Below, one piece after another: positions 24,083-53,268 of a stretch of DNA of 64,000 nucleotides (positions are counted from its first letter, which is position 1; each line of letters opens with the position of its first letter). The notes under the pieces were generated by a model. That model searched no databases. It was given only the letters and a program-made list of their open reading frames with translations, and was not told the DNA's origin. The position numbers were made by a program, and so were the translations under genes. Origin of the DNA: a virus (lineage: Duplodnaviria > Heunggongvirae > Uroviricota > Caudoviricetes). The stretch lies in IMG/VR virus record IMGVR_UViG_3300008111_001118, one strand, 5' to 3'.

Positions 24083-24382
24083 TTATGGGCGTGATGGCCA
24101 AAGACCATTTACACAAATAATGTAGTGTAGTCCTTTAGAAGGACTTTCTAGTTTTGGCAATGCAAAAGTAGTTATTCCATCGCCGCCAAAAGTACATCCT
24201 AGCAATGCAAAGAGGGCTTGATACTGAGAAATATTTAGTATTCTACCGTCACAGGCCATGAAGCCTTCTGGGTCATAGTTAAATGCAACAAGTTTAATTG
24301 CTCCAATAAATTCTTCCATGTTTTTTCCTTTATAAAATTTACAAATCGCCGACTTTGCGATTCTCACTATATTGTACATCAA
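24083..24382 (-). CDS. stand-alone phage tail-collar domain protein (99 aa)
   Basis: FNYDPEGFMACDGRILNISQYQALFALLGCTFGGDGITTFALPKL matches the tail-collar fibre domain consensus. Confidence 0.5.
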   Translation of the reverse strand: MMYNIVRIAKSAICKFYKGKNMEEFIGAIKLVAFNYDPEGFMACDGRILNISQYQALFALLGCTFGGDGITTFALPKLESPSKGLHYIICVNGLWPSRP

Positions 24383-25549: not shown

Positions 25550-27445
25550 TTACTTATGATCATTGTCAACCGATAGATTTCCATCTGATACAGTGCAACG
25601 CCAATAACTTGCTTTACGGTTCCAATGATATGCCTTATGATAAAAGGTTCTGTTATCAACAGGTTCTTTGTCCGCATGATCAATAACTAAATCATTGGAA
25701 CGTATTCCTAGCATACTTTCTGTTAAGTCTGCGTCTATATCATTGAGAATTATTGGATACTGCGCTGTATTGTTTTTGCACATTAGTATGTTTAAGAATA
25801 CAGATGGAAGTGCTGGTAACGATGGGTAATACTGCCGCATAAAAGCAACAAGATCATCAACTAACTTACGTGTGTTCTTGTGTAACACAACACTGGAAGC
25901 ACCTTTGTATTCCCAATAGATATCGTCTTCACCTAAAACCTTGCGACCCCAAAAACCTTGACTTTCGAATGTGTTTTTTAAATGAGAAAGTGTTTCTTGA
26001 TATTCACTATGTAAAATAGTATCGGGATTCTGCTTAATAAACTCCAATATATTTTCAAATACATCAGTTTCTTTGCAGCCAGTTTCTTTACAGATGTATT
26101 TTGTTAGATAATGTCCCCAACCATAATAATACATTAGGATAGAGATCCAACTAAACATATGCCCAGCAAGCATGGTTTCATAATCTACAGTTCTTGTGCT
26201 GCAAACAGCGTCAGTGTATTCAACAATATAGTCTTTTAAGTCCTTGGTACTTAGATAATATGTATCAAGAGGAACAGTTTTAGTTTTTATGCCCCAGCGT
26301 TGTTGATATTTAGGATCTCCCATTGTGGCATTATTGGTAATAACCAGTGGATGTATCATTAAGAAACTATCCTGCCCTAGGTCGATTAACTTTTGTATGC
26401 CTGTTTTAAGAGATTCGTAAGTTTCTTCAGGCATTGGCCATATAAGTTCGCTGTACGTTGGAATGTTTTCTTCTTTATAACGTTCTAAGTAATGCTTTAC
26501 TTCGTTTTCTTTTATATTAAAACGTTCACTGGCTTCAAGAGTAGGGTCGTTAAAACTTTGCATAGCAAACGTAACACCTTTGAATATGTCAACGCCGTTT
26601 GCTTTATTCATCATTGCTATTTCAAAGTTGCGATCGACATTGTTTTTAGCCCAAGTAGCATCCCACCAACGTGGATAACCGTACTTCTTTTTAGTGTCAA
26701 TAACATATTGTGTTATTTCAACGTCTCTTTCTAGTAATCCCCAATTGCTATCGCATACACTGACATATTCTATTCTATTGCGACCCATCCAGTCAATTTC
26801 TGCTTTGACACGATTTATATCAAACAGTGTTAGTTTATTCCAGTAACCGTCGCCGATATCACAGAACGCACAATGATAAGGACAGCCTCTTAGTGTTTCA
26901 AATGTGACTTGCCACATAGTATCTTCAGGATAATTGGCCATAATAGGTTCATAAAACCCTTCTAGTATAGGACTTGGTATGTCTGATATATCTAGAACTC
27001 TAGCAGCCATTTTTGGCATGTGAGTGCGAGTTTGCACATGAGGAATGTCGTTGTAGTTGTCCTCTCTTGCTAATATTTCTTTAAAGGCACGTTCTCCTTC
27101 TCCGTGAACTGCTAGATCAAACATAGGATATCGGTCAAAAAACTCAGGATCACGTTTGTGAATTTGTGGTCCGCCTACAACAATCTTACAATTGGGCCAT
27201 AATTTTTTAATTTCACGTGCCAGTGTTTGATTATATTCCCAATTCCATACGTAACTACTCATAGCAACCATCGAAGGATTGTCCATAGTTTTTACATAAT
27301 CAGTAGGAGGTATTTTTTCAATAAGTGTGTCTTTGAGATTCCAGTTTTCATTGCGAGCGTATAGCCATTGATAAGCAATTGCCAATGGTAAAAACTTATT
27401 AGGTCCGTAAGCATCAACAACTTGTACTAGATAAATGTTTTTCAT
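25550..27445 (-). CDS. radical SAM enzyme with N-terminal B12-binding-like domain (631 aa)
   Basis: CPYHCAFCD (CxxxCxxC) radical SAM cluster motif preceded by a KIVVGGPQ-type B12-binding-like domain. Confidence 0.7.
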   Translation of the reverse strand: MKNIYLVQVVDAYGPNKFLPLAIAYQWLYARNENWNLKDTLIEKIPPTDYVKTMDNPSMVAMSSYVWNWEYNQTLAREIKKLWPNCKIVVGGPQIHKRDPEFFDRYPMFDLAVHGEGERAFKEILAREDNYNDIPHVQTRTHMPKMAARVLDISDIPSPILEGFYEPIMANYPEDTMWQVTFETLRGCPYHCAFCDIGDGYWNKLTLFDINRVKAEIDWMGRNRIEYVSVCDSNWGLLERDVEITQYVIDTKKKYGYPRWWDATWAKNNVDRNFEIAMMNKANGVDIFKGVTFAMQSFNDPTLEASERFNIKENEVKHYLERYKEENIPTYSELIWPMPEETYESLKTGIQKLIDLGQDSFLMIHPLVITNNATMGDPKYQQRWGIKTKTVPLDTYYLSTKDLKDYIVEYTDAVCSTRTVDYETMLAGHMFSWISILMYYYGWGHYLTKYICKETGCKETDVFENILEFIKQNPDTILHSEYQETLSHLKNTFESQGFWGRKVLGEDDIYWEYKGASSVVLHKNTRKLVDDLVAFMRQYYPSLPALPSVFLNILMCKNNTAQYPIILNDIDADLTESMLGIRSNDLVIDHADKEPVDNRTFYHKAYHWNRKASYWRCTVSDGNLSVDNDHK

Positions 27446-27963
27446 CTTAAGAATTCACGCCAATCTAACTCGTACTTTATCGAATCAATCTTATGTATAC
27501 CAATAAGATAAAGAACGTAAGAAGCAACACTACTACCACGACCGACTCCCCAAACAATATTGTTTTCTCGCATAAAATCCACAAGATAGATCATGTACCT
27601 AAGTAGATTTTCTAAATCACGATCTAAGTAGGCAGATAATTCTTCTGCCATACGCTGAACTTGTACGTGATTGTCGCAGCGTTTATAAAGATATTCTAGT
27701 ACGTCTATATCTTTATAGTTATCTGGCATATACCAGTCTTTTTGACAAAGATTGTCAAATTCAGATTTATTCACGTCTAACGGTACATAGGCAGTTAACG
27801 TTGGCAACCCTAGTTCTTCCGATGCTTGATTAAATTTTTCTACATCGTCACTGGGATCGCAAAGTACAACATGACACATGTCCTGTCGACCCGAATATAT
27901 CATATCAATTAAGTCGCGATTACTGAATCGCGGAATACCGAGATTGTCTGTTTTCAAAAGCAT
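27442..27963 (-). CDS. hypothetical protein (173 aa), translationally coupled to the radical SAM gene
   Basis: ORF with 4-nt overlap. Confidence 0.45.
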   Translation of the reverse strand: MLLKTDNLGIPRFSNRDLIDMIYSGRQDMCHVVLCDPSDDVEKFNQASEELGLPTLTAYVPLDVNKSEFDNLCQKDWYMPDNYKDIDVLEYLYKRCDNHVQVQRMAEELSAYLDRDLENLLRYMIYLVDFMRENNIVWGVGRGSSVASYVLYLIGIHKIDSIKYELDWREFLR

Positions 27964-27971: not shown

Positions 27972-28202
27972 TTAGTTGATTTTGATTAAATCGTCAAGAT
28001 CATCTTTGCCTTGTTCTTGCTGTTTACGTTTTGCAGCAACACGGCGTTCTTCTAAATCTAATTTATATGTATCCATCAACAAAATCATTTGTTGTCTCAC
28101 GGCGTCATTGTCAGTCATAAAGTATATAGAATTCAATCTCAACAACTTTTGCTCAATCTGAGACTCAGTTAGTTTCGATAAGTCTTCTGACATAGGGTGC
28201 AT
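27972..28202 (-). CDS. hypothetical coiled-coil protein (76 aa)
   Basis: ORF. Confidence 0.4.
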   Translation of the reverse strand: MHPMSEDLSKLTESQIEQKLLRLNSIYFMTDNDAVRQQMILLMDTYKLDLEERRVAAKRKQQEQGKDDLDDLIKIN

Positions 28203-28765
28203 TATGCAAACATTCCAAGATATCTTACAAATGCAGTTACGCCGCCGTCAAATGTACTAACTTCAATTAATTTTGGTTCAGTTGACGATGTTGCAGTAAG
28301 AGGGGATGGATAGCCAGTAGCATACTTAACAGTTCCGCCTTCTGATGTTAGTGTAACATTCCATACATTGTCGTCACTGTATAAGAACAGTCTCATAACC
28401 GAATAGTTTTCTGCGGCAAAGTCAGTGAATCTTAGTGTAACATCCGATTCTACTTTTATAACATGAACGTGTCCAGTTCCCCAAGAAATATCTACGTTTG
28501 TAGTACTGCTCAATCCAGTAGCATAAGTTTCATTGGTAAGTTGTGTGGTTGCTAATAATGCTGCTTCGATGATTTGATTTCCACCAAAGTTATTGTTTTG
28601 ATCTACTCTTGCAACACCGTCCTGCAGATCACCTATTTCATTTCTTGCTGTATTTAACGCAGTCTTGATAATATTAAAATTATCACGGAACCCCTGACTA
28701 TCGTTGTCAACCCCGGCTACTGGGAAGTTTTCATCTATTGTACTTGCTATAATTGTACTTGCCAT
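28202..28765 (-). CDS. fibre/baseplate-associated protein (187 aa) with weak similarity to the shared fibre N-domain
   Basis: AGVDNDSQGFRDNFNIIKTAL resembles the NDGTGDxLRxAFxKINxNF block of downstream fibre genes; preceded by a CGATAAATA late-promoter-like motif. Confidence 0.45.
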   Translation of the reverse strand: MASTIIASTIDENFPVAGVDNDSQGFRDNFNIIKTALNTARNEIGDLQDGVARVDQNNNFGGNQIIEAALLATTQLTNETYATGLSSTTNVDISWGTGHVHVIKVESDVTLRFTDFAAENYSVMRLFLYSDDNVWNVTLTSEGGTVKYATGYPSPLTATSSTEPKLIEVSTFDGGVTAFVRYLGMFA

Positions 28766-28798
28766 TTTAAATTCCTTAATTTGTAATATTTATCGTTG

Positions 28799-31700
28799 TT
28801 ATACGTTAAATTGATAATTTGCGAACAATATATACTGTTCTGTGCTGTTGCTGGTTGTTGCATCTATGATATATCTGTCAACTTCAAAGTTCAGTAAACT
28901 AAAGTCAAACCCAGAATTTGTGATATTATTTTTTATAGTGCTGCTGTAACCAGGCTTTGTATATACCAACGGTAATGCTAATACATAGTCGATTTCCGAT
29001 AAACTGCCATTTTGTGCAGTACGCATCCACAGTGGTAAAAAGTCTCTAGAACTTTCTCCAGTTTCTTTTATATTTGCTCTCATATTATCAATATTTGATA
29101 TGTATTTTTTAACATCGTTTTGCTGTGATGATTTTATTGCGTTACTGTCTGCTGTAATAGTGTTTGTAGTTGGTTTATATCTAAATCTCCACGGAGCACC
29201 GGCATCTCCCGAAGGCTGAACAATAGTAGCATTGAACACAATATTTGTACCATCTCTTGTTAGAACTCTCAGTGCGCCGTTTGCGTTGTAAATAACTTCA
29301 CTGCCGTCTCTTACAATAATAATCAAGTCCTCAGACACAAGTGGTATTGCAATTCCACCGTCTCTACCGCCAAGGTCTATAGTAATAGAACCATCACGTC
29401 CGCCAAATATGTCGTCTAATGGTTCGTACTTAACACTGTCTACTGTAATTTTTCCAGATCTATTTACAGTTTGGAAGAATTGTTTTGCTTTTCCAGACCT
29501 CGGTTTAGCCGGGTCTATTAGATCAACATATACAACTTCGTAGATTACTTCGTTGCTGCCTGGGTTTTTAGCAACCGCAGTTTTCAATTCTCCAAACAAG
29601 AAACGTTTCTTTTTGTGATTTTTTGCTGTTGCACTAACAAAAGTTGCAATATCGTTTGTTTCAATTCCTGCATATATCAACGCACGTAATTTTTTCTGTA
29701 TACCAAAATTAGAATCGCTGGGTCTGTAAACACTTCTAGGATCGAAAATCCGTGAGTCATTGATAAATTCGTCAAAAGATTGTTTTTGAGCAGGTATCAA
29801 AAATGGCTGAACAAAAATATTACTGTAAGTAAGATTGTCTTTGTCGTTTATTGATAGAGTAAATGTTCTAGAAACAGCACTAAATCCAAATCGATCTCTT
29901 GCCAATACTGTAAATGTATAGTCTCTGTCCAGTGAAGTAGTACTGCCGTCAAAAGTAGTAGTGCCGCCATCAAAGAAAGTAAGTCCAGGGTTTTCTACTG
30001 TGCCCGATATCGGAACTTTACCTACAATTTCTCCATCTAGTTTCAGTGTTAATCCTGGTGGCAATCTGCCTGAAACTAGATTATATTTCATATTTGCATC
30101 AGGGACTGTACTTTCTGCTTGAACAGACAGTGTGCTAATTCTGTTGGCCGGTAAAACACCAAGATTGCTGTCAGTGATCCATGTAATTGTACTGTCAATT
30201 TCTCCAAGCAGTTTCAGTGTAAATGTTTTGCTTTTTGATGCAGTATCGACTTCTGCACGTGGAAACGATTTACTAAATCCAGCACCAACATAGGTAGCCA
30301 AACTCAATTGTCTGCCAACGTCAAATGTTCTAGTCAGTGGTTGATCTAATAGTATTCTATCATTTAATCCAATTTGTGTTAGAACAATGGCAGTGCTATC
30401 GGAAGTATGAAATAGGCTATTAATGTAACTGGTATTTCTATTTTGTGCAGTTGCAGGAATAACCAATCTTATTTCAGTAATATTAGATCCGCCTGTTATA
30501 GTAACATAAGCAGGATTACCGTTGGAAGTTAACAGTTCATTTAATTTATTTGCAATTGTAGTAGTAACTGGTCCGGTTACACCTTCGTTAAGTTCGATAT
30601 ATGATGTAAGACTGTTGGTTGAAATTTTCCATTCAACATAAGGATAGATACTTCCGATTCTATAAACTTCGGAATCACTGAACTTTAAATTCTTTCCAGA
30701 GTAAAATAATTTATCCGACTCGCTGAGTGTAGTAACAAAGAAATAGTCTGTTCCTGTTGCAGTTTTTGTAACATTTAGTGGTGTTGCTGCTGGAGTAGGC
30801 TGCAATGTTTCAGTAAGAGTAATTGTGTCATACAATACGTTACTACCGTCAACACTTTCTACAGTATACGATCTTTGTTCTATAGCAATTTCTTTGCCCA
30901 CCAACGACTGCAAATCGTCTAAGCCATCGACGAGAGTTCTTGGTAGTTTTGCAACTCGGAATGTGCTTGTTCCAGAAAAGGCATCTTCGTAAAAACTAGC
31001 AAATACAGTAACCACACCTTGTTCTGCATTAAATCGTGTAGCAGTAATAGTAAACTTATATTCTTTGGTAATTGCTGGTTGGTATGGAACAATACCGGCA
31101 ATTTCTCCAGTTTCGGAATCTAGAGTCATACCTGGCGGCAGTTCGCTCTTAGAATTGTCGTCGTTAATAGTTTCTAAAAAGTAAAGTATATCGCCTTCGA
31201 CGTTTGTAGGATCTAATACGTCAAGGTATACTGTTATAAAATTGTTTGCTCTTCTAACACCCAGATCTGCTGGTGTTAACCATACCGGAGTTCTAAAGTA
31301 TGTAATGTCGGCTGTAAATACTCCATCGGCAGCCTTCATAATTGTGTTGTCTGCTCTTGTAAAGTCGTCGCCTACAACATAAATTTCAAATCGACGTTTT
31401 GCAAATGACACATTATCTGCAACTGTTACATAAAACTCGTATACTCTGTTTAATTTTTTAGGTGCTCTTGTAGGTATGTTATAGTCATAGCCTTTGGTGT
31501 CATAGTAGTATGTGTCTAAACCGTTATCACTTGGAATAGTATAATCAAAAGGATACTTTCCGTATTCTACAACGTCGTACCCTGCATTTAGTGCATTTAC
31601 ATCTAACGCTAAAAGTGGATCAACTACGCCAACAAGTCTGCCATCTCTTGTTAACTCAATGCCAGGTGGTAATTCACCTGCGCCGTCGGCAACAAAAAAT

Positions 31701-32377
31701 TCTAAGTTGTCGCCTGCTGGTAAGTCTGTATCAGTAGCAAGAAGTTGAAAATCAATAAAACTGCTGTCTAAAATAAACAGTACGTTATTTGGACCAACTG
31801 GTAGTCTGCCCTCAGGAGTTAACCACTGTGGATTATCCGGACCTTTGGTAACAATAGTAAATGTTCTATCTAATTCGCTTGATGACGTTTTTGCTCTAAT
31901 TACAAAAGTACTTTGTGTAGTTCTTGCAACTTCAAATAGAGTACCTACAATTGAGTTATTTTCTAGTCTTAGTCCTGCAGGCAATTCCCCGCTGATCACT
32001 TCAGTTGTTATATCAGAGGTTTCTTCTAGTGGAAGTGCAATATTAACAGTTGTTCTTTCTTCAAAATTACCTAGTTCTGTATTATTTGGTACTGTCCATC
32101 TTGGATAATTTTCAACTATTAATCTAAAAGTTCTATCTAGTACTCCGGCAGGTGTTTGTGCTCTTATTACAAAAGAAAAGTTTGTGTTGTAAACAACTGT
32201 AGGAGCAGTGCCTACTATTGCATTTCTTTCTATTGCTAGACCAGTTGGCAAACTACCACTTAAAAAAAAGGTATTGAGTTCTGGCATTTGCACTACCGGC
32301 AAAGGAATGTAAACTTCAGAATTTTCTGGTAATCTTCCTAGTTCTGTATTATTTGGTACTGTCCATTGTGGTAGCAT
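28799..32377 (-). CDS. large structural protein (1192 aa) with two tandem N-terminal Ig-like repeats
   Basis: Repeats PQWTVPNNTELGRLPEN... and PRWTVPNNTELGNFEER... of about 95 aa each; Thr/Ser/Asn-rich beta composition typical of fibre/baseplate proteins. Confidence 0.55.
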   Translation of the reverse strand: MLPQWTVPNNTELGRLPENSEVYIPLPVVQMPELNTFFLSGSLPTGLAIERNAIVGTAPTVVYNTNFSFVIRAQTPAGVLDRTFRLIVENYPRWTVPNNTELGNFEERTTVNIALPLEETSDITTEVISGELPAGLRLENNSIVGTLFEVARTTQSTFVIRAKTSSSELDRTFTIVTKGPDNPQWLTPEGRLPVGPNNVLFILDSSFIDFQLLATDTDLPAGDNLEFFVADGAGELPPGIELTRDGRLVGVVDPLLALDVNALNAGYDVVEYGKYPFDYTIPSDNGLDTYYYDTKGYDYNIPTRAPKKLNRVYEFYVTVADNVSFAKRRFEIYVVGDDFTRADNTIMKAADGVFTADITYFRTPVWLTPADLGVRRANNFITVYLDVLDPTNVEGDILYFLETINDDNSKSELPPGMTLDSETGEIAGIVPYQPAITKEYKFTITATRFNAEQGVVTVFASFYEDAFSGTSTFRVAKLPRTLVDGLDDLQSLVGKEIAIEQRSYTVESVDGSNVLYDTITLTETLQPTPAATPLNVTKTATGTDYFFVTTLSESDKLFYSGKNLKFSDSEVYRIGSIYPYVEWKISTNSLTSYIELNEGVTGPVTTTIANKLNELLTSNGNPAYVTITGGSNITEIRLVIPATAQNRNTSYINSLFHTSDSTAIVLTQIGLNDRILLDQPLTRTFDVGRQLSLATYVGAGFSKSFPRAEVDTASKSKTFTLKLLGEIDSTITWITDSNLGVLPANRISTLSVQAESTVPDANMKYNLVSGRLPPGLTLKLDGEIVGKVPISGTVENPGLTFFDGGTTTFDGSTTSLDRDYTFTVLARDRFGFSAVSRTFTLSINDKDNLTYSNIFVQPFLIPAQKQSFDEFINDSRIFDPRSVYRPSDSNFGIQKKLRALIYAGIETNDIATFVSATAKNHKKKRFLFGELKTAVAKNPGSNEVIYEVVYVDLIDPAKPRSGKAKQFFQTVNRSGKITVDSVKYEPLDDIFGGRDGSITIDLGGRDGGIAIPLVSEDLIIIVRDGSEVIYNANGALRVLTRDGTNIVFNATIVQPSGDAGAPWRFRYKPTTNTITADSNAIKSSQQNDVKKYISNIDNMRANIKETGESSRDFLPLWMRTAQNGSLSEIDYVLALPLVYTKPGYSSTIKNNITNSGFDFSLLNFEVDRYIIDATTSNSTEQYILFANYQFNV

Positions 32378-32386
32378 TTTTAGTCC

Positions 32387-33121
32387 TTATACAACTGTAC
32401 CTAGATCAACTGTTCCTGCTGTAGGTGAAACAAATGATCCAAAATCTACTCCAACTTGGTTGATTACCCAACTTAAAATACTGTTGCTAGTAATACTTGA
32501 AAATTCTCCAAAATCAAAACTCTCAATATAACGTCCTATAGAGTCGTAGTAATTTACTGTTTCGCTTCCTGTTTCTGAACTTTGTATATCAGTCAGTGTC
32601 ACTTTTGTTGCAACGACACTAGGTGTTACAATACTTTGTGTAGCAATATAATTAACATTTGTAATTTGTTTATTATTAGCATTAAGGTTTCCACCAAGTA
32701 CTGGTGTTGTTTCATTAACCAAGGCACCGTTGATTGTAATAGTTTTATTATTTTCGTTAATTCCTACAACAATTCCGCTGGCACCAAAGATATTGTAGTT
32801 TAAGCCAGGACCTGCAATCAAACTTCCAGCATCGCCTGTGATAATAAAGTTACCAGTAGGGGATATGGTATCAATAACAATAGTATTGTCAAGTTCTTGT
32901 AATGTTACACTGTTTCCAGCAACTAAACGTCTAAAATTTAAAACGTTGTCAACTGTGTTAGCGTACACTCTAGCACCAGCAGAACCTAAGTTTGCTGCAC
33001 TTTGAAATGCAATCAGTTCAATCTCTTGAAAGTTTTGATTTATCTTGATAAAGGCTTCTCGAAGATCATCACCTGTTCCGTCGTTAGCCGAGTTGCCCAC
33101 ATTGATATTTTGAATAGCCAT
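32387..33121 (-). CDS. tail-fibre-like protein (244 aa) with conserved N-terminal domain
   Basis: N-terminus MAIQNINVGNSANDGTGDDLREAFIKINQNF is shared with three other genes; late-promoter-like motif upstream. Confidence 0.55.
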   Translation of the reverse strand: MAIQNINVGNSANDGTGDDLREAFIKINQNFQEIELIAFQSAANLGSAGARVYANTVDNVLNFRRLVAGNSVTLQELDNTIVIDTISPTGNFIITGDAGSLIAGPGLNYNIFGASGIVVGINENNKTITINGALVNETTPVLGGNLNANNKQITNVNYIATQSIVTPSVVATKVTLTDIQSSETGSETVNYYDSIGRYIESFDFGEFSSITSNSILSWVINQVGVDFGSFVSPTAGTVDLGTVV

Positions 33122-33151
33122 TTTAATCCCCGTTTTAAGTATTTATCGATA

Positions 33152-34447
33152 TTACGGAGCCGCAGGAGGGTTGTACAAGTTAACCCATCCTGCTGTAGGT
33201 ACAAAACTAACATAGGACGCTATACCAACGTATACTTGAACTTGACTTGTAGTTTCATTGTAAATTATGTCACCCAATTGCGGGGTTAATGCATTTCTTT
33301 GTGTAGTAGTTAATACTGGCAACTGAAACACACCTGCAAATATGCTAACTCTACTTGTTGCAGTTCCTGGAGTAATATTAATACTACCAGCCGCGCCAAT
33401 AGTTACATTAGACTTTCCAGGAATACCTTGTAGATCACCGTAGTAAACTGTATTTTGAACATACGAATTACTAAAATATCTCGAGTCTGACCCTAGGTCA
33501 TAGACATTGGTTGTATCGGGTATGATACTGTTATAAAATGAAATTGCACTTTGACTTTTTATCTGTAGTGTGCTAGTGCCGCCGATGATCAATATTCCAG
33601 CGTTTGAATCAACAGTTATTGTTTCATTGGTGTCAAACAATAGATTTCCTGTACTTCTTAGTGATGTACCGGAAACTTGCCCATTTGCAGTCAACCCTCC
33701 TACTGTAATACTATTTGTAGTTGCGTTACTGCGATCTGTAATAGCATCTAGTGTATCTGCTTCGGCAGTTAGATAATTGTTTGGGTTAGTAAGACCGTTA
33801 TAAGGAGTATACCCTAGAGCATCTATAACATCTCCTGATGTTAAAGTAAAACTTGTTGTTGAAAATTGAATGCCATTTTCTGATCCATTAATTTGTAAAA
33901 ACTTACCAGCCTGACCTGAATAGGTGTTGGGTGTATCAGTTAAACCAGTTAATGAAAGTTCACTTATGTATCCTTCGGGGTTAAAATCATCGTAAGGAGT
34001 ATATCCTAGAGCATTAATAATATCGCTGCTAGATAGTACGGGCTTATTGTTTAAGTCGTTGTAATTTCCAGTTGTTGCAACAGTTGCTAGTACGGGCTTA
34101 TTGTTTAAGTCGTTATAATTTCCAGTTGTTGCAACATTAGCAAATGCAGGAACATTATTTAAATCGTCCCAGTCTACTAGTTCTAAGATGTTAGTATCGT
34201 TTATTCTAACCACACCTGTGACATTTAAGTTAGCGTTAGTAGAAATACTACCTGTAACAGTAACAGATCCACCTATAGTTGCGTTGCCCGATGTTTGAAC
34301 AGTTGCAGAACTTATACTGTTAATCACTGATAAACTAGTAACGCCTACTAATCCGTTGCCAGTTAAATTAAGATTATCTCCAGACGGCAATTCTTTAATT
34401 TGGTTACCCGAACTAGTGTCAACAATAAGTGGAAATCTATTTGCCAT
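33152..34447 (-). CDS. tail-fibre protein (431 aa) with internal tandem repeat
   Basis: N-terminus MANRFPLIVDTSSGNQIKELPSGDNLNLTGN; exact tandem repeat ATTGNYNDLNNKPVL x2; Gly/Thr/Ser/Asn-rich. Confidence 0.6.
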   Translation of the reverse strand: MANRFPLIVDTSSGNQIKELPSGDNLNLTGNGLVGVTSLSVINSISSATVQTSGNATIGGSVTVTGSISTNANLNVTGVVRINDTNILELVDWDDLNNVPAFANVATTGNYNDLNNKPVLATVATTGNYNDLNNKPVLSSSDIINALGYTPYDDFNPEGYISELSLTGLTDTPNTYSGQAGKFLQINGSENGIQFSTTSFTLTSGDVIDALGYTPYNGLTNPNNYLTAEADTLDAITDRSNATTNSITVGGLTANGQVSGTSLRSTGNLLFDTNETITVDSNAGILIIGGTSTLQIKSQSAISFYNSIIPDTTNVYDLGSDSRYFSNSYVQNTVYYGDLQGIPGKSNVTIGAAGSINITPGTATSRVSIFAGVFQLPVLTTTQRNALTPQLGDIIYNETTSQVQVYVGIASYVSFVPTAGWVNLYNPPAAP

Positions 34448-34479
34448 TTTTTATTCCTATTTTATGTATTTATCGTATC

Positions 34480-35343
34480 TTACCAAGTGTCGCCCGACCA
34501 AGCAACTCGTTTCCAAATGTTAGTGACACCGTCATGGTTTTGTGTGCAGTAGTACATATATGTACTGTCAAATGCTACTGATCCCACGTAATCATCGCTA
34601 ACACCTATACTTGTAGATGGCACCGCGGAAAGTATTCTTACATATTCCGTAATAAGAACAACGGTTTTACCACCGCTAGTATTTCCATCTCCGATTTGTA
34701 CTTGCGATATTCCATCTTGGGAAACTATAAAGTTTGTATAGACGTTGTTATTATCAACTTCCCCGACAATCTTACCTGCCACACCATCTACCAGTAGTGT
34801 GCTGTCGTCAGCGAATACACTACCAGTGACATCACCATCTAGTGAAGTTTGTGGTCCTGTATAGGCAGTAATCTGTACCGTGGCATCTGGAAATGTCAAC
34901 GCTCCTGCACTATCAAATTTCCAGATTCGACTTCCGCCGACATACGTAACTTCGATTCCGGCTCCGTAGCCATCCTCCACCCAAATGTAAGTACCGTCTG
35001 TACTTTGTAACTGAGCGAGCGGTGCTTGGATATCAATAATTTCGCCTGTAGGGTTAGTTATACCATTGGCATCAAAAACAATATTACCCAAACTGGGTAT
35101 AGTCGGTTTATTGGTTAAATCATTGTAACTGCCACTGAATGTGGAATATTGACTAAGACTAACGCTGTTGCCACCACTTATAGCTAATGTGTTTCCTACT
35201 AAAGTCAATGTTTGAGCATCAGTGTTTACTGCACGATCATACAATTCAGTAAAGTTGCTGTTGATCTTAGTAAAGGCTGTACGTAGCGGATCGCCATCGC
35301 CTTTGTTTGCACTCGACCCTATGTTAATGTTCTGCTTTGCCAT
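34480..35343 (-). CDS. tail-fibre-like protein (287 aa) with conserved N-terminal domain
   Basis: N-terminus MAKQNINIGSSANKGDGDPLRTAFTKINSNFTELY. Confidence 0.55.
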   Translation of the reverse strand: MAKQNINIGSSANKGDGDPLRTAFTKINSNFTELYDRAVNTDAQTLTLVGNTLAISGGNSVSLSQYSTFSGSYNDLTNKPTIPSLGNIVFDANGITNPTGEIIDIQAPLAQLQSTDGTYIWVEDGYGAGIEVTYVGGSRIWKFDSAGALTFPDATVQITAYTGPQTSLDGDVTGSVFADDSTLLVDGVAGKIVGEVDNNNVYTNFIVSQDGISQVQIGDGNTSGGKTVVLITEYVRILSAVPSTSIGVSDDYVGSVAFDSTYMYYCTQNHDGVTNIWKRVAWSGDTW

Positions 35344-38300
35344 TATACTCTTCCTACTACTACTTCAACAACGCCTCTAACATCGTCTAACTTGTTAGAA
35401 ACTGCTTTACCTATTACAGTACCAACACGAGGATCATTGTCAACTATGCCGTATCCTGGTATTGCACTTGTAACAATCAAGTCACCTTTTTGTACCTTGC
35501 CAAGAACCTTAACTGGTACACGCCCTTGCAGTGCAACCCCAGTTACAAAATCGCCTTCTAATGCACTGTTCATCAAGTGCGCTGGATTGGTTGTAACAAC
35601 ACCTGCTACACGTCGATCGCCCTTAACATTGGTTACAGTAACTTCTTGTTCGCCACCAAACACCAGTACAGTACCGGGTTCGTATGCTACGTCAGAAAGA
35701 TAGTTTTCTGCCAAGTCAGCATACAATGCTTCTGTAGCAGTACCGTTGAATGTTGTAGCATAAACAGTATTCCAACGTCTTGTACTTAGACCCAGCATCT
35801 GTCCGCTGTCTGTTGGACTGTTTAACCCAGGTATAATATTACCACCCATAGTAAGTATACCAGCAACAGTAACGTTATTAGGAAGACCTATAGTAACTGT
35901 TCCACCTGCTTGTGCTACTGTGGTTTCGTTTGCAGTTGCAGCAAATGTCAGTGTTCCTCCTAGAGCGATACTACTTGCTGTAGTGCCATCTGTTACAGAA
36001 ATGCTGCTGTTTGCAAGTTTGCTATTTGCAATTCCGCTTGTTAGTATTGATATCCATCCACTGCTAGCAGTAAATTCTGCACTGTTAAAACTAGCAAGAC
36101 CTCTATCGCCTTGTGTGATTCCAGTTGCGTTTGCTCTAGTTGTGGCAGCGTTCATACTCAATTTACTTTGAGCAATTGCTGCTGATGCACTTACATCAGC
36201 ATTAACAATAGATCCTGAGTTGTATTGTGCGCTTAATACACCTGCAGAATAAGTAAATGTAACGTCGCTAACCAACGGATCTGAAGAAAATGCTTCGTTG
36301 GTCCACTTGCTAGTAGATCCGTTATAAACTAAAATCTCAGCATTTGCAGGAGTTACAATTGCAACATCGTCTAGTTCTGACAATTCATCTTGTGCTGCTA
36401 GTAATCCATCAACATAATTTTTATTAACAGCATCTGTTCCAGCAGTCGGGGATCCTAGGTTAGTAATTTGATTACCACCCATACTTAGATTGCCAGTCAT
36501 AGTATCGCCGGCTTTTCTAATAGCGCCGCCGCCGATGATGTCTCCTAATAGTAGTGCATCACCGTCTCTGTCCCATCCTAAACGTTTGTTAATGTAACCT
36601 TCGACTGCGGTTTCAGTAGGTACACTATCGCCAGTTGCGTTAGTAAATGTAGTATCTGGTGAAAACTCGTTAACTCTAACACCACGTTTGAAACCAATAC
36701 CGTCGATGTTTGTTAGAACAAGTGCAGCGTTAAATGTAACACGACCGGTGCCTTGGTCAACTGTAAAGAATCTACCTACACGGAAGAAACCGTCTTGGTC
36801 AGTACTTGCAAAGAACACACGTCCTCTTACACGTTCTTGTACCTGTGCTTTGGTATTGAATCCGTTGCTATCCACTGCTTGTTCGTCAGTTACTGCGGCT
36901 TCAATTGGTGCACCGTAAATTCTATCAGGATAGTTAGAAGTGTTGTATCCACCAGTACCGATATCCAGGAAGTCATGACTTGTTGCACGAGTAGTACTGA
37001 TATTAACAGTGATATTGGCAGTTGCCCCAGTATCTAAACCTGCTTTGAGTGTGATATTGTCACCTATTGAACTGTCTGCTCTTACAGCAATACCTGTTCC
37101 AACATACGTAGGGTGAATACTGTACACATCAGTAAATGTAATAATACCTAGAGTATCACCGTTTAATCCAGATGTTCCGCTGGTATCAACAATTTCAGAA
37201 TAACCTGTAATTTCAAACTGTTTGCCGCCCCAAGTAAATACCATTCCTAGTATTCTTGTTTTATCAACAGTATCGAGTCTTGCAATTACAATATTAAGAT
37301 CTCCTACTGTTCTTCCAAGTGTAGTTCCACCTGTAGGAGCAGTTCCTATAGTGCTGCTAACTGTGTAGTTTACACCTAAGTTGTAACTGGCTCTATCATT
37401 GTCCACATTCAAGTCAATGTAAGAAAAGTTATCATCAACACCAACAACTGCCTGTGTACCAACAACCGGAATACCACTAACAATTGTATTTTCAAATGCA
37501 ATTGTTCTGTATGTATAAACTGGATACTCGTTAAATATAAAAGCAGTACTAGGTCTTGTTAGAACGTCTGAAGTGATTCCGTTTACATAGAAGTTTTGTT
37601 TTGCACGATAAACTGCCAACGTGCCAAACCCAGTAAGTTCTTGGATACCAGTGTCTGCGGTTGCAACACCACTGGTTAGATCAAGTCTCCATATTTTTGC
37701 ACGAATAGTACTTGTACTGTCGCACAATGAACTTACAAGGTTTGATGGAATTTCTAATCCTGTATCGGTAACGCTTACAACTTCGTAAGGTTGATACAAT
37801 CCAGTGGTATGAAGAATTTCAATTTCGCTGGCATTTAGCGGATAGTCGGTTAAGTCGTAAACATAAACAGCAACATCGTTTTCATTTGCAGTAAAGTTTC
37901 TATTTACAACTGTATATGGTGCAGTTCCTAGAGCAGTGCTGCCGCCTTCAACTATTTGATCACTAGCATTAAAACTACCACCGGTTATGTTTTCAATATA
38001 CAGTATGGTATTGCCGCCCACTACATCAAAAAATGCCAATTGACCTGTAACTGTTCCAGTTACTTGATCTTGCTTGATATTTTCGCCAGCAGTGAGCAAT
38101 GCACTTACATCGCCTGTTACTGTTACTTCTTGTTCAACTACATATATTTTTGCAGGCTGTACAAGAGGCTGTACAAGACTTGCTACTCTTGAAACTTCGT
38201 CAGGATCGCTGCCTTCTGCAACCATACCAAACGTACCGTAACTGTTGTTACCAGTTAGTGATCGTATCTGCGAACCGTTGCGTGAATAATAACCTGTGTG

Positions 38301-40931
38301 ACAATAATAAGTAAACACACTTACAAGTTCTGATAATGCGTTGTTTGTTGCAATTACACCATAACCTAAATCATTGATTTGTGTGTAGTCGTTTGCAAGC
38401 ATACTCTTGTTACCAGAACCCTGGAGAACAGTATCTATTTCCCCAAGAGCACTATCAACCATGTTGTCTAAACCAATGCCGTTGTTGCTGGTTTCATCAA
38501 GGATAAGTGTCGCTGTAGCAAGACCAGCACCGTCGTTGGGCACATAATTGGCAATTGCATTAACTTGATATCTTGCACCATTAATAAAGAACGAACACGG
38601 AGTTCTAGGTTTTCTAATACCAAGTCCACTTGTTGCAGGTGCTTCGATTTGTAGTGTAAAGTTGTCGTCTTTGTCTACAATAGTAATTGGCATGTTGTAA
38701 ACATAACCGTCAATAAACATACCACCGCGGAATGCCTTGCGATTCAAACTTCCGCTAAAACTAGTACAAGTTTGTGCATATGGTGATCTAGTTAAAATAC
38801 TACCAGTTGGATCCAACGCCATCATAAATCCACCATGACGTTGACCAGTAATATTACGTAACAGTGTGGCGTCGTTCATTAAGAAGACATCCATTTCGTT
38901 GTTGTTCTTTGGCGTACTATTTGGGTTACTTGGATCTGTTAGATAGTGATAACCATAATAACCAATTGTTGAACTGTCACTAGGATCAACATGCATATCG
39001 CCGCCTGTTGCAGTAGTTAACCCGTCGATTGTAGCATCTCTATAGAAATAAGTTCTAGCATGTATCGAAGTCGACACACCTGCTGCTGGACGAATAATCA
39101 CACGACGGAATTCATCACCCTTGATAGATACGTTTTCAGGAACACGTATTGGTAGTTGTTCATCGTAAATTCCAGATTCGACTCTGATTGCAATTTGATC
39201 TCTTTTTACAAAGTTTGCATATTCAAGTTCTTCATTGGCAACAAATTCTTTGGTGTCAACTAATTGAAGTTGCACAGTATCATATGTTGGTGCACCAACA
39301 GTATCGGCACCTCTTTGATAAGTTACAACCTGTCCAACTGCACCAGATGTTTTACCTCTAATTAACTTTCCTGGAATAATGTCGACATTTGGGTTAGCAA
39401 TACTTGGATTTCCTGACTGTGTGGTGTACTTGTCAGGACCACTGAATACAAAGATAGTATAATAGTTTGATGATTCAACTAAACTTGGGTCAGCAACTGC
39501 TGGGTTAATCATTGCAAGAACATCATCAAATCTGTTTGATGCTGCTGTATACCAAGGATTTGATATAGTTCCTAGTGCAGTTGCAATTTCAGCAAGCATT
39601 CTTGTTTTCGCTCTTTGTATTGCATATGCAGTTTCAGTATATTGACCTTGACTGCTAATTGCAAATTCAGCACTTGGATTCGAAAAGTATCTTAAACCTG
39701 CGTAGCGTGATAGATAATTATGTTTTATCAATCCTGTGCTTGCACCAATATCGAGTTTGATAGAATCTAAAATTAAACCTAGATCTCTGCGGCAAATAGA
39801 CTCTGTATAGATAAATGTAGGATATTCATCGGCAATATCAGCAATTACATCATCAATAATACCAGACTTTTCCAGTGCAATAGTATCGTAAACTGTTTCC
39901 TGATCGCCACTGATTGAATATCCAAACGGATTACCAGATGTGTCTGTAGCAACAATATACGAAGTTGGTTCATCTAAACCATCTGTGTATGTAATATCCA
40001 TAACATATGGTCCAAGGTCGACTGGCGATGCTTCTTGAATTCTTTCTGCTTTAGCACAAGCCGCAGCAATACTTGCAAATGAGTATGCTTCACTTCTGCC
40101 TTGTTTTCCGGGCGGGGTAGTTAATTGGTCATCACTGCCATTTTTAGTAACAAACAAATTAACAGTTGACGAATACGATGTACTGTCTACATAAAACTTT
40201 GTTGCTGCTTGGAGATCTGCGGTACTGTTTGGAGTACCAAAACCCTGGAATGGAAATGGATGGTCCGAAAGTGTTAGAGCACCGGTCATAGTGTCCCCAG
40301 ACTTCTTTACCACTTCTTGTACACGAGGTACTTGTGTACCACTTGCGCCTGCAGGAACATTTAATGCTCCGGTCATAGTATCGCCGGTAACATTTATATA
40401 TTTGTTATCTGCATATCCTTTGGTTATTACTAGATTTGCGGTAGTAATAGGATCTCCAGGATGTGCAGCGTTCCAGTCTGTTACAAGAGTGCCAATTGTG
40501 GCATCGTTTGTTAACAAGTTTTGTGTTGTATTATTATATGCTGCTACAGAACCTAATTGTAATGGATTGGTAGTTTCTGGTGACGGATCGTCTGCAAGTT
40601 TGGTATTAACTGCACGGACAACAAGTTTATTGTCAACAACGTTAAATGCTATGGTGTTGGCGGTATCCAACGGATTGTTTGTTCCTGCATCAGAAACTAA
40701 ATCATAAAAGTCAACTCCTGTGCCATCTTGTTTAACTAAAACAACTTTGCCTTCGTTACCCAAGTAGGTATCTGGTGTATCGTTTAGTGTTGTAAATCCA
40801 ATTTGACCACCTAGACCAAAAACTGCATAAAGTTCGCCGAAGTTTTCATTTACTTTGCGAAACGACTCACGAATACTGTCGCCTGTGCCGTCATTGCCCT
40901 CTACGCCGATATTGACTTCTTGTTTTGCCAT
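35343..40931 (-). CDS. giant fibre/structural protein (1862 aa) with conserved N-terminal domain
   Basis: N-terminus MAKQEVNIGVEGNDGTGDSIRESFRKVNENFGELY; very long Thr/Gly/Ser/Asn-rich beta-type sequence. Confidence 0.6.
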   Translation of the reverse strand: MAKQEVNIGVEGNDGTGDSIRESFRKVNENFGELYAVFGLGGQIGFTTLNDTPDTYLGNEGKVVLVKQDGTGVDFYDLVSDAGTNNPLDTANTIAFNVVDNKLVVRAVNTKLADDPSPETTNPLQLGSVAAYNNTTQNLLTNDATIGTLVTDWNAAHPGDPITTANLVITKGYADNKYINVTGDTMTGALNVPAGASGTQVPRVQEVVKKSGDTMTGALTLSDHPFPFQGFGTPNSTADLQAATKFYVDSTSYSSTVNLFVTKNGSDDQLTTPPGKQGRSEAYSFASIAAACAKAERIQEASPVDLGPYVMDITYTDGLDEPTSYIVATDTSGNPFGYSISGDQETVYDTIALEKSGIIDDVIADIADEYPTFIYTESICRRDLGLILDSIKLDIGASTGLIKHNYLSRYAGLRYFSNPSAEFAISSQGQYTETAYAIQRAKTRMLAEIATALGTISNPWYTAASNRFDDVLAMINPAVADPSLVESSNYYTIFVFSGPDKYTTQSGNPSIANPNVDIIPGKLIRGKTSGAVGQVVTYQRGADTVGAPTYDTVQLQLVDTKEFVANEELEYANFVKRDQIAIRVESGIYDEQLPIRVPENVSIKGDEFRRVIIRPAAGVSTSIHARTYFYRDATIDGLTTATGGDMHVDPSDSSTIGYYGYHYLTDPSNPNSTPKNNNEMDVFLMNDATLLRNITGQRHGGFMMALDPTGSILTRSPYAQTCTSFSGSLNRKAFRGGMFIDGYVYNMPITIVDKDDNFTLQIEAPATSGLGIRKPRTPCSFFINGARYQVNAIANYVPNDGAGLATATLILDETSNNGIGLDNMVDSALGEIDTVLQGSGNKSMLANDYTQINDLGYGVIATNNALSELVSVFTYYCHTGYYSRNGSQIRSLTGNNSYGTFGMVAEGSDPDEVSRVASLVQPLVQPAKIYVVEQEVTVTGDVSALLTAGENIKQDQVTGTVTGQLAFFDVVGGNTILYIENITGGSFNASDQIVEGGSTALGTAPYTVVNRNFTANENDVAVYVYDLTDYPLNASEIEILHTTGLYQPYEVVSVTDTGLEIPSNLVSSLCDSTSTIRAKIWRLDLTSGVATADTGIQELTGFGTLAVYRAKQNFYVNGITSDVLTRPSTAFIFNEYPVYTYRTIAFENTIVSGIPVVGTQAVVGVDDNFSYIDLNVDNDRASYNLGVNYTVSSTIGTAPTGGTTLGRTVGDLNIVIARLDTVDKTRILGMVFTWGGKQFEITGYSEIVDTSGTSGLNGDTLGIITFTDVYSIHPTYVGTGIAVRADSSIGDNITLKAGLDTGATANITVNISTTRATSHDFLDIGTGGYNTSNYPDRIYGAPIEAAVTDEQAVDSNGFNTKAQVQERVRGRVFFASTDQDGFFRVGRFFTVDQGTGRVTFNAALVLTNIDGIGFKRGVRVNEFSPDTTFTNATGDSVPTETAVEGYINKRLGWDRDGDALLLGDIIGGGAIRKAGDTMTGNLSMGGNQITNLGSPTAGTDAVNKNYVDGLLAAQDELSELDDVAIVTPANAEILVYNGSTSKWTNEAFSSDPLVSDVTFTYSAGVLSAQYNSGSIVNADVSASAAIAQSKLSMNAATTRANATGITQGDRGLASFNSAEFTASSGWISILTSGIANSKLANSSISVTDGTTASSIALGGTLTFAATANETTVAQAGGTVTIGLPNNVTVAGILTMGGNIIPGLNSPTDSGQMLGLSTRRWNTVYATTFNGTATEALYADLAENYLSDVAYEPGTVLVFGGEQEVTVTNVKGDRRVAGVVTTNPAHLMNSALEGDFVTGVALQGRVPVKVLGKVQKGDLIVTSAIPGYGIVDNDPRVGTVIGKAVSNKLDDVRGVVEVVVGRV

Positions 40932-40943: not shown

Positions 40944-41309
40944 TTAAATAGCAGGTACTGCTAATTTATCCATATCAAAATTTACACTCACACCACAACC
41001 ACAACTGCTCTTGGCATTTGGATTGCGAATTTCAAAATTGCTGCCTACTAGACTGCGAATGTAATCTACTTCAGTTCCTATTAAAAACATAAGGCTGTGT
41101 GAGCCTACTACAAATCTACCAGCGTTATCTGTGTGTATAACAACGTCGTTGGGTTCTAGATCTGACGGATGTGCTACAGTTCCCCAATCATATTCAAACC
41201 CTGCACAGCCACCACCACGTAGATTCAAACTAATTGCATAGCAATTGTTTTCCTTGCATAGCATATCGATTTGTTTTTTAGCAGATTCTGTAAGAGTGCA
41301 AACTTCCAT
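40944..41309 (-). CDS. IscA/HesB-family A-type Fe-S cluster carrier
   Basis: GGGCAGFEY and C-terminal NPNAKSSCGCGVS align with the IscA SGCSGMAY / NPNVKDECGCGES Cys triad. Confidence 0.75.
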   Translation of the reverse strand: MEVCTLTESAKKQIDMLCKENNCYAISLNLRGGGCAGFEYDWGTVAHPSDLEPNDVVIHTDNAGRFVVGSHSLMFLIGTEVDYIRSLVGSNFEIRNPNAKSSCGCGVSVNFDMDKLAVPAI

Positions 41310-41325: not shown

Positions 41326-41333
41326 TATTTATA
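41326..41333 (-). promoter_or_regulatory. T4-type late promoter (TATAAATA on the minus strand) upstream of the IscA-like gene
   Basis: Plus-strand tatttata = minus-strand TATAAATA, about 20 nt upstream of the ATG. Confidence 0.5.
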
Positions 41334-50013: not shown

Positions 50014-50097
50014 TGGTGCCCACTGCCGGACTCGAACCGGCACTCCAGAGGAAGCAAATTTTAAGTCTGCCGCGGCTACCAATTTCACCAAGCGGGC
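50014..50097 (-). tRNA. tRNA-Leu(TAA), class II
   Basis: Hand-folded: acceptor GCCCGCT/AGTGGGC, anticodon stem GCAGA/TTTGC with loop CTTAAAA, long variable arm, T-arm CCGG-TTCGAGT-CCGG, encoded CCA. Confidence 0.8.
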
Positions 50098-50100
50098 ATT

Positions 50101-50496
50101 TTATTTTTTATACTTATCACCGGTAACTTGACCGGCACTCATTATAATAACTGGAATACGTTTAATATTCATTTCACGAAATGCAAAGTAACGATGATGT
50201 CCATCAATTACTTGATAAGTGTTTTCTCGTGGAATTCTTCTTACTAGTATTGGAGGTATCTTGCTGATATCTCGTTTTATCTGTTTTTTAATACTGTTTA
50301 TATTTGCTCTAGCATCAACATCTTTAGTATCACCTTTACCGTCTCCTTCGAATCTAGATCGGATCTGATTCATAGGCATTACAACAACTCGGTTGTATTC
50401 GTTTTTAAAATCAGTTACATTGGCACCGACAGTACTGTCACCAGTTTCAGGATCAACGTCTTTGGTTATTTTTGCTACTACTTCAAATATTTTCAT
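50101..50496 (-). CDS. ParB-like nuclease domain protein (about 131 aa from the internal Met MKIFEV)
   Basis: DGHHRYFAF motif of the ParB/sulfiredoxin fold. The ORF as called (to 50553) would overlap tRNA-Leu(CAA), so the internal start is preferred. Confidence 0.5.
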   Translation of the reverse strand: MKIFEVVAKITKDVDPETGDSTVGANVTDFKNEYNRVVVMPMNQIRSRFEGDGKGDTKDVDARANINSIKKQIKRDISKIPPILVRRIPRENTYQVIDGHHRYFAFREMNIKRIPVIIMSAGQVTGDKYKK

Positions 50497-50512
50497 ATAG
50501 TATTTATTATTT

Positions 50513-50595
50513 GGTGCCCCAGGAGGGACTTGAACCCCCACGCCTTGCGGCAAAAGATTTTGAATCTTCCGTGGCTACCATTACACCACTAGGGC
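50513..50595 (-). tRNA. tRNA-Leu(CAA), class II
   Basis: Hand-folded: acceptor GCCCTAG/CTGGGGC, anticodon loop TTCAAAA, long variable arm, T-loop TTCAAGT, CCA encoded. Confidence 0.75.
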
Positions 50596-52133: not shown

Positions 52134-52162
52134 AATATAGTGCATGTTGCACCAAAGGTCAA
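52134..52162 (-). promoter_or_regulatory. sigma70-like promoter (TTGACC-N17-TATATT) firing leftward into the 1.3-kb ORF-free region
   Basis: Read from the sequence; copy 1 of a duplicated promoter-leader module (see 54979-55008). Confidence 0.55.
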
Positions 52163-53262: not shown

Positions 53263-53268
53263 ATATAC

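Follow-up and report, generated by a model that had tools for sequence, protein, structure and literature searches.

A T4 gp9/gp10-type N-terminal block shared by three proteins of a probable baseplate and fibre module from an uncultured freshwater jumbo phage

The gene module described here lies on the minus strand of a 64,000-nucleotide stretch of Caudoviricetes DNA (IMG/VR record IMGVR_UViG_3300008111_001118), which is referred to below as the window. It consists of six consecutive open reading frames (ORFs) at positions 28202–40931, encoding proteins of 1862, 287, 431, 244, 1192 and 187 amino acids (aa) and named by these lengths g1862, g287, g431, g244, g1192 and g187 (Table 1). Three of the proteins (g1862, g287 and g244) begin with the same 35-residue block which, as judged from its sequence, is the known N-terminal domain of the T4 baseplate proteins gp9 and gp10 (Pfam PF07880). 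The module probably encodes the peripheral baseplate and fibre proteins of an uncultured freshwater jumbo myovirus, where the block would dock protein trimers and two positions, called here slot 2 (g287) and slot 3 (g431), are exchangeable between related phages. The genes had been pointed out in an earlier note made from the DNA letters, and all six ORFs were confirmed.

The shared N-terminal block

Residues 1–35 of g1862, g287 and g244 are identical at 19–23 of 35 positions in pairwise comparison (54–66%), and 16 columns are invariant (M1, A2, Q4, N7, G9, N13, G15, G17, D18, R21, F24, K26, N28, N30, F31 and E33), in agreement with the consensus proposed in the earlier note. The note had assigned the block to four genes; the assignment stands for these three and fails for g187, which has an N-terminus of its own and is missed by a hidden Markov model (HMM) of the block. 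In the same way, the signature INIG..(N/D)DGTGD.LR...KIN.NF.ELY, starting from residues 1–4, is found in g1862, g287 and g244 and is absent from g187. Among all 606 six-frame ORFs of the window the block HMM matched only g1862, g287 and g244 (E 1e-24 to 1e-28); the HMM was built from these three sequences and their matches are given by construction, the informative part being the next ORF at E ~1. Outside the block, the three sequences have little relation to one another, as had been claimed, and share only weak fibre-type motifs.

PF07880 matches g1862 with E 1e-5 (26.1 bits), g287 with E 1.7e-4 (22.1 bits) and g244 with E 2e-3 (18.7 bits); with the gathering score set at 25, only g1862 is above it. 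The matches cover profile positions 1–37, 1–68 and 2–71, respectively, out of 175. T4 gp10 in the PDB was matched by sequence search with E 7e-5 and 7e-4 (the latter for g287), and residues 4–35 of g244 align in the PDB search to residues 3–34 of T4 gp10 (QNINIGNVVDDGTGDYLRKGGIKINENFDEL) with ~64% identity. The PHROG families of g287 and g244 are those of the gp9 connector and the gp10 wedge protein (PHROG 677 and 958 for g244), PHROG 677 being matched by both proteins mainly at the N-terminus. An HMM made from sequences of this clade alone recovers T4 gp10 (6e-14), T4 gp9 (2e-3) and gp9 of cyanophage S-RIM2 (6e-14).

The block is widespread. Its profile finds 13,503 representatives of 50%-identity protein clusters, 4,039 of them at E ≤1e-10, and in these representatives, which range from ~50 to more than 4,000 aa, it stands nearly always at residue 1. 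In cultured phages the proteins carrying it are annotated as gp10 (Tevenvirinae) or gp9 (cyanophages). Database proteins P0001, P0006 and P0010 contain 3–4 tandem copies of the block per chain of 200–1000 aa, an odd arrangement if the domain, as supposed, works as a trimer at the extreme N-terminal end.

The N-terminal domain of T4 gp9 binds gp7 (PMC3004832), and the gp9 trimer binds a docking loop formed by residues 258–292 of gp7 domain III (bioRxiv 10.64898/2026.03.06.709160). In gp10, domain XD2 binds gp12 and XD3 binds gp11, while XD1 is without a trimeric partner; in the related protein TSP4 of phage CBA120, the part that precedes XD1 serves as baseplate anchor domain (PMC8825819, PMC10253068). 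The 35-residue block is situated ahead of XD1 in both gp9 and gp10, i.e. in the anchor position. The contact made by residues 1–36 of gp10 itself we infer from secondary descriptions.

Three subfamilies of the block can be distinguished across the clade: the “giant” type (vEGNDGTGDSIRESF) of the g1862 relatives, the slot-2 type (N.GdGDPLR.AF), and a type with its own signature at the position of g244 (slot 4). Fractional identity of the blocks is 0.68–0.78 within the classes and 0.52–0.55 between them, and the nearest neighbour belongs to the same class in 99 of 104 sequences. This specificity suggests three distinct docking sites, or sockets, comparable to those of gp9 and gp10 in T4.

Cassette exchange at the anchor boundary

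ORFs of 79 IMG/VR loci and of three loci from other assemblies were classified with three N-terminal HMMs. The constant parts of the loci are a giant block-bearing protein, a block protein of 186–285 aa, an immunoglobulin (Ig)-rich protein of 1022–1803 aa and a g187-type protein. The variable positions are slot 2, where the anchor is kept, and slot 3, where the N-terminus is a different one. The earlier view of a shared attachment domain with swapped distal parts is thus partly borne out: the docking domain is there and the slot-2 tips vary, but the giant protein and g244 are conserved orthologues and swapping is confined to slots 2 and 3.

The slot-2 protein is encoded directly after the giant gene; in some loci it is absent, and in the others it has 67–605 aa. 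Among 30 distinct slot-2 sequences the first 35 residues are 51–97% identical (68% on average), while for the last 30 residues at least 10 classes, unrelated to one another, can be distinguished. Many of these proteins are only 67–99 aa long and end in a conserved helix-like tail (...ATLKTEVAAATDFADFQARIAAL). Database protein P0021 (1078 aa) contains the first 85 residues of g287 (~88% identical) as well as its last 48, with ~800 extra residues between them.

The boundary of the exchange can be located by comparison with L072, a locus from metagenome 3300008267 that belongs to a related phage with a 60%-identical g1192; the same metagenome also yielded a contig, L002, with module proteins identical to those of the window. 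The general nucleotide identity between L072 and the window is 65–77%. One segment, running from the region of the g1862 C-terminal domain through the first 105 nucleotides (nt) of the slot-2 gene, is 84% identical, and the blastn match stops exactly at codon 35 of g287 (window position 35239). Within the first 105 nt of g287 the identity reaches 91% (80% at third codon positions). From 33145 on, in the promoter region of g244, homology is found again. Between these two boundaries the window contains 2.1 kb (the distal part of g287 together with g431), and L072 contains 144 nt coding for another tip. The abrupt fall of nucleotide identity, from 91% to a stretch without detectable homology, speaks against divergence in place. 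The earlier note had proposed a search of relatives for cassette exchange at the domain boundary, and these nucleotide alignments show that such an exchange is real.

Slot 3 is represented in the window by g431, the N-terminal 33 aa of which share 59–67% identity with the beginning of cyanophage proteins that carry a virion-structural annotation, S-PM2p177 among them. Its relatives share the MANR(F/Y)PL N-terminus, have 182–1128 aa and form 14 distal clusters; an extra unclassified gene encoding 500–1360 aa often follows. At 34034–34141 (minus strand) g431 contains a 54-nt tandem duplication in perfect register (94% identical), which encodes the repeated peptide ATTGNYNDLNNKPVL. The motif YNDL(T/N)NKP of g431 is also found in g287.

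Conserved components of the module

The giant protein g1862 matches the PHROG tail fibre family phrog_9851 with E 8e-52. Its orthologues are 40–62% identical over the whole length, with domain insertions, and have mostly 1820–2722 aa; by these comparisons g1862 is a conserved scaffold component of the clade and not a swapped cassette. The C-terminal domain matches PHROG tail-fibre families and families of unknown function and has tblastn hits in the jumbo phages Phosso, Atu_ph07 and PA5oct; sequence searches of Pfam and the PDB gave nothing for it. The central part resembles tail-fibre proteins of cyanophages and Pelagibacter phages. The strain-level differences are concentrated here. In a close variant, L003 (97.8% identical; L003 2170–7779), g1862 differs at 83 residues, of which 74 lie in residues 900–1599 and 9 in residues 400–899, with none in the first 400 or the last 260; the other five module proteins of L003 have 0–4 differences each. 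Residues 900–1599 thus look like a hypervariable or recombinant patch, and the central region is a candidate for the host-interaction surface.

A g244-type protein of 186–285 aa is found in 76 analysed loci, always immediately upstream of the gene for the Ig-rich protein, and is conserved at both ends. By this measure g244 is a constant scaffold component and not a swapped cassette. The profile of the g244 family matches T4 gp10 with E 1.4e-8 and a gp9-type connector (PDB 9f4a) with E 5e-4, the latter match reaching only chain residue 135. The structure of g244 was predicted from an alignment of database homologues. The model has a 22-residue helix at residues 17–38, compatible with a coiled coil; its best Foldseek match has E 0.2, and there are weak matches to triple-beta-helix spikes. 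Assignment of g244 as a full gp9 homologue found no support, as hhalign against T4 gp9 aligns residues 4–36 only. The three-domain connector architecture of gp9 (~290 aa with a fibre-binding C-terminal domain) was found neither in g244 nor in g287. No XD2, XD3 or C-terminal domain of gp10 was detected either, the PDB sequence searches aligning only gp10 residues 2–36 (up to 61).

The tandem Ig-like repeats that had been noticed in g1192 are confirmed both by Pfam (He_PIG, three stretches) and by an AlphaFold model (predicted local distance difference test score, pLDDT, 74), which consists of tandem Ig/cadherin-like domains and matches cadherin and Ig arrays. The protein has 1,705 homologues, many of them on contigs of 250–380 kb, and is found in more than 570 IMG/VR loci. 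As an equivalent of gp7 it was rejected on the present results: phmmer and profile searches of the PDB were empty, hhalign against T4 gp7 gave E 0.53, and fold searches gave only generic Ig/cadherin arrays and uncharacterised phage “Ig” proteins. A distant homologue is gp329 of the Agrobacterium jumbo phage Atu_ph07 (27% identity over 49% of g1192).

The g187 family is characterised by the invariant motif P15-G18-N21-Q24-G25-F26-R27-D28. Its members have mostly 181–225 aa, and 579 aa in loci L063 and L064. Profile–profile comparison with the g244 family gave nothing at the N-terminus (E 0.41); with this result and the absence of a block HMM match, membership of g187 in the anchor family, even a weak one, was rejected, as was a relation to gp11. 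The g187-type N-terminus also heads the 876-aa gp328 of Atu_ph07, which adjoins gp329, both lying beside tail fibre and sheath genes. The Atu_ph07 proteins gp327, gp328 and gp329 were found in purified virions by mass spectrometry, gp329 with low coverage (3 peptides, 2.08%; PMC6102473 supplement). The presence of gp328 and gp329 in virions, together with the N-terminus that g431 shares with cyanophage virion proteins, supports a structural role of g187, g1192 and g431.

Table 1. Features of the module and of the gene preceding it, in order of decreasing position in the window
Feature	Position	Strand	Remarks
T4-type late-promoter-like motif TATAAATA, sole copy in the window	41326..41333	-	17 nt upstream of HesB-like gene
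HesB/IscA-like gene (Pfam Fe-S_biosyn)	40944..41309	-	Pfam annotation of identical contigs
g1862, giant fibre-like protein, 1862 aa, with gp9/gp10-type N-terminal anchor	35343..40931	-	PF07880 at residues 3–39; PHROG phrog_9851
g1862 anchor block, codons 1–35, “giant” subfamily (vEGNDGTGDSIRESFrKVNeNF)	40827..40931	-	
Central g1862, ~residues 900–1600	36132..38234	-	strain-level amino-acid differences concentrated
g1862 C-terminal domain, ~residues 1693–1862 (YADLAENY...GRVPxKV...VVVGRV)	35346..35855	-	60–85% identical in relatives
g287, “slot 2”, 287 aa, with gp9/gp10-type anchor and exchangeable distal part	34480..35343	-	PF07880, T4 gp10
g287 anchor block, codons 1–35, “slot 2” subfamily (N.GdGDPLR.AF.KiN.NFtElY)	35239..35343	-	also left boundary of cassette replacement
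Late-promoter-like motif CGATAAATA	34467..34475	-	20 nt upstream of g431
g431, “slot 3” fibre, 431 aa, with own N-terminal anchor (MANRFPLIVD...ELPxGDxLNLTGN) and internal repeats	33152..34447	-	
Late-promoter-like motif CGATAAATA	33140..33148	-	19 nt upstream of g244; right boundary of L072 cassette replacement
g244, “slot 4”, 244 aa, with gp9/gp10-type anchor, short beta-rich body and conserved C-terminal domain	32387..33121	-	
g244 anchor block, codons 1–35, “slot 4” subfamily	33017..33121	-	
g1192, Ig-rich structural protein, 1192 aa	28799..32377	-	He_PIG E 2.6e-15, three stretches
Late-promoter-like motif CGATAAATA	28787..28795	-	22 nt upstream of g187
g187, small conserved protein, 187 aa, with third N-terminus type (FPVAGxDNDSQGFRDNF)	28202..28765	-	

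Promoter-like motifs and translational coupling

The motif CGATAAATA occurs 4 times in the window (0.67 expected), all on the minus strand, and three of the copies are placed 19–22 nt upstream of the ATG codons of g431, g244 and g187. The first transcription unit opens with the HesB-like gene, preceded by TATAAATA; the start of g1862 lies 12 nt downstream of this gene, close enough for translational coupling, the start of g287 overlaps the stop codon of g1862 (TAATG), and g1192 starts 9 nt after g244. The statement of the earlier note that every gene carries a late-promoter-like motif or is coupled translationally therefore holds, with motifs 17–22 nt upstream of the ATGs and coupled starts elsewhere. 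The core of the motif is conserved in relatives: ATAAATA is found upstream of 31 of 39 distinct orthologues of g431, 32 of 58 of g244 and 51 of 53 of g187, and upstream of none of the coupled giant (0/24) and slot-2 (0/36) genes. By the TATAAATA-like −10 element, the module would be classed as a T4-type late transcription unit.

Over the whole window ATAAATA occurs 14 times, always on the minus (coding) strand and in several cases just upstream of start codons; 19 occurrences are expected, so the number is not above chance. It is also peculiar that a HesB/IscA-like Fe-S assembly gene should head a fibre operon; the gene order is kept in the relatives checked by gene call (including L005–L007).

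Source of the module

Identical copies of the module are present on contigs from several freshwater metagenomes, the longest of which (ENA ERZ19570656, GROS21-1 scaffold_4) has 263 kb, and the contigs of relatives have 250–380 kb; this indicates that the source is an uncultured jumbo phage. A megablast search with the 12.7-kb module found nothing among 50,697 phage records, which means that there is no close cultured relative. Taxonomic placement by a conserved 470-aa protein gave scattered distant matches only, and a search of the six module proteins against NCBIfam gave no matches.

Function of the module

In the probable arrangement proposed above, the module would be expressed late as four transcription units starting from the late-promoter-like motifs (HesB-like gene–g1862–g287, g431, g244–g1192 and g187). 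By analogy with the docking of T4 gp9 on the gp7 loop, the block would plug three different trimers into the baseplate's periphery. The proteins g1862, g244, g1192 and g187 are the fixed scaffold, while g287 in slot 2 and g431 in slot 3 occupy the positions open to exchange. In the course of evolution, everything distal to the anchor would be replaced by recombination among related phages, with the anchor-coding block and the next late promoter serving as conserved flanks of the exchange.

Several observations weigh against this arrangement. Domain XD1, a beta-sandwich that equals the middle domain of gp9 and follows the block in gp9 and gp10, is undetected here, the PF07880 matches being confined to the first 37–71 of 175 positions. 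The monomer model of g244 is of low confidence (pLDDT 66) and gives no match to the gp9 or gp10 fold. No homologue of gp7, which would provide the socket, was found (the profile comparison of g1192 with T4 gp7 was negative). Slot-2 proteins of 67–99 aa are too small for ordinary fibres. Finally, according to an older interpretation of cryo-electron microscopy data the N-terminal domain of T4 gp10 is the attachment point of the fibre gp12, and the block might accordingly join fibres to one another instead of joining them to the wedge.

The most serious alternative, to which we give clearly less credence than to a module of docked and partly exchangeable fibres, is that the block-bearing proteins are themselves wedge or connector proteins like gp9 and gp10. 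They would then hold other fibres, and receptor binding would fall to g431 and to proteins encoded elsewhere. The only block carriers of T4 are indeed gp9 and gp10, neither of which is a fibre. For the same reason the comparison drawn in the earlier note, of far more fibre types here than in T4, had to be given up: the T4 carriers are a connector and a wedge protein, and their number is two against three in the module. The constant size of g244 and its conservation at both ends across the clade are connector-like as well, and the many short slot-2 proteins with the helix-like tail resemble an adaptor more than a receptor-binding tip. On the other hand, g1862 matches tail-fibre families over hundreds of residues and its strain variation is concentrated centrally, slot-2 proteins reach 605–1253 aa with diverse tips, and neither XD1–XD3 nor the C-terminal domain of gp9 was detected. 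It has also been considered that the shared N-terminus is a generic non-structural signal (for export, chaperone recognition or translation) unrelated to baseplate attachment. The block is very short and nearly always stands at residue 1, as such a signal might. Nevertheless, structures of the T4 baseplate (gp10 chains of 5iv5 and 5hx2) show the homologous segment resolved, the gp7-binding domain of gp9 is formed by it, and the g244 model has a helix over residues 17–38 that is compatible with a coiled coil. In addition, the block is hydrophilic, rich in Gly, Asp and Asn, and without features of a secretion signal. This explanation, which the earlier note had named as fatal to its own, is therefore very improbable, the block being a structural docking domain of the T4 gp9/gp10 N-terminal type.

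The earlier note had also suggested a shuffling system for diversification of host range. Active diversification of the fibre genes, whether by a diversity-generating retroelement or by a shufflon of invertible segments, would agree with the general pattern of a constant N-terminus and variable distal parts, and with nothing more specific. No inverted repeats of at least 45 nt and no direct repeats resembling template/variable pairs were found in the module or anywhere in the window, where tRNA genes and in-frame protein repeats account for all the long direct repeats. The three anchor blocks show no repetition at the DNA level within the window, and the module proteins are 100% identical on contigs of three different samples. 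Neither a recombinase nor a reverse transcriptase was present among the 26 ORFs scanned, which are a part of the ORFs of the window. Thus the idea of active shuffling is largely refuted, and its probability is the lowest of all the explanations considered.

Comparison with known systems

The module resembles gp9 and gp10 of T4 in having the same block at residue 1, several paralogues per phage, adjacent genes and, presumably, late expression. It differs in the number of paralogues (3 instead of 2), in the lack of detectable XD1–XD3 and gp9/gp10 C-terminal domains, and in the fusion of the block to an 1862-aa fibre-like protein as well as to short proteins. Moreover, no homologues of gp7, gp8, gp11 or gp12 are adjacent, and the module lies between genes of DNA metabolism.

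Receptor-binding or fibre genes in a row, with conserved T4-baseplate-related N-terminal domains and exchangeable distal modules, are also known from branched complexes of multiple receptor-binding proteins: TSP1–4 of CBA120 (Ackermannviridae), gp63.1/gp66 of G7C and gp526–534 of Alcyoneusvirus RaK2 (PMC8825819, PMC10253068, PMC11414711). These complexes branch via XD2/XD3 and are attached as a whole by one anchor of unrelated sequence, whereas here each of three proteins has its own copy of the gp9/gp10 block. No Pfam, PHROG or PDB match to XD2/XD3 or to depolymerase beta-helix domains was found in the six proteins, although sequence methods may miss distant XD folds.

In cyanophages of the Kyanoviridae, gp9 (S-RIM2) likewise starts with the block and the MANRFPL-type N-terminus heads virion structural proteins; the clade described here is a different one, of uncultured jumbo phages, and the 36-kb region of S-RIM2 that was examined has one block gene. 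In Atu_ph07, likewise, the homologue of g1192 (gp329) has gp328, with its g187-type N-terminus, behind it. The protein gp328 has 876 aa against 187 aa in g187, and the 25-kb stretch of Atu_ph07 examined contains no genes with a gp9/gp10-type N-terminus.

Other features of the window

The G+C content of the window is 35–47%, and nearly every gene is on the minus strand. Upstream of the module lie genes for a UvdE-like endonuclease, the HesB/IscA-like protein, QueD, a glycosyltransferase, a ClpP-type prohead protease and DNA ligase. Downstream are a DnaE fragment, a radical-SAM enzyme, MazG, an exonuclease, a clamp loader, ThyA and PhoH. In the relatives with listed genes the g187-type gene is directly followed by a conserved ORF of 73–79 aa (MHP...L.DL...IE.KI..LNS.YF...), located in the window at 27972–28193 (minus strand); it may encode a small assembly factor. 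At 25550–27963 (minus strand) a stand-alone 173-aa fragment of DNA polymerase III alpha (PF07733) overlaps the gene of a 631-aa B12-binding radical-SAM protein, which is present in L006 and absent from L005 and L007. A 78-aa ORF with a Pfam Collar (phage tail collar) domain stands alone amid genes of nucleotide metabolism at 24083–24319 (minus strand; annotation of identical contigs), and L006 has a similar gene of 88 aa. The stretch 50014–54598 (minus strand) contains 18 tRNA genes with small ORFs between them, including 3 for tRNA-Leu, 3 for tRNA-Ser, 2 for tRNA-Thr and 2 for tRNA-Gly.

Biological implications

That conserved N-terminal anchors are combined with distal receptor-binding parts of a variable kind belongs to textbook knowledge on phages. 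No new mechanism is proposed here, and the module follows this known design of modular baseplate and fibre proteins. The analysis provides a map of fixed and exchangeable baseplate and fibre genes for widespread uncultured jumbo phages of fresh and marine waters, and shows that use of the short N-terminal segment of T4 gp9 and gp10 as the constant end in extremely diverse tail proteins extends well past the T4-like phages.

As a more tentative suggestion, which we regard as possible and no better than that, aquatic jumbo phages of a very large clade may use slot 2 as a dedicated “hot-swap socket”. As a plug, the 35 residues would allow everything between a 67-aa blank (the anchor and a 30-aa helix) and a fibre of more than 1,000 aa. 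The anchor-coding block and the late promoter that comes next would guide the exchange, and each of three sockets would be served by a plug subfamily of its own. If this is true, baseplate accessories in more than 13,000 protein clusters would share the gp9/gp10 block as a common plug-in standard, which could serve in engineering host range. Knowledge of the codon-35 boundary and of the three subfamilies of the plug could help to predict host-range determinants in metagenomic phages and to guide the design of chimeric fibres.

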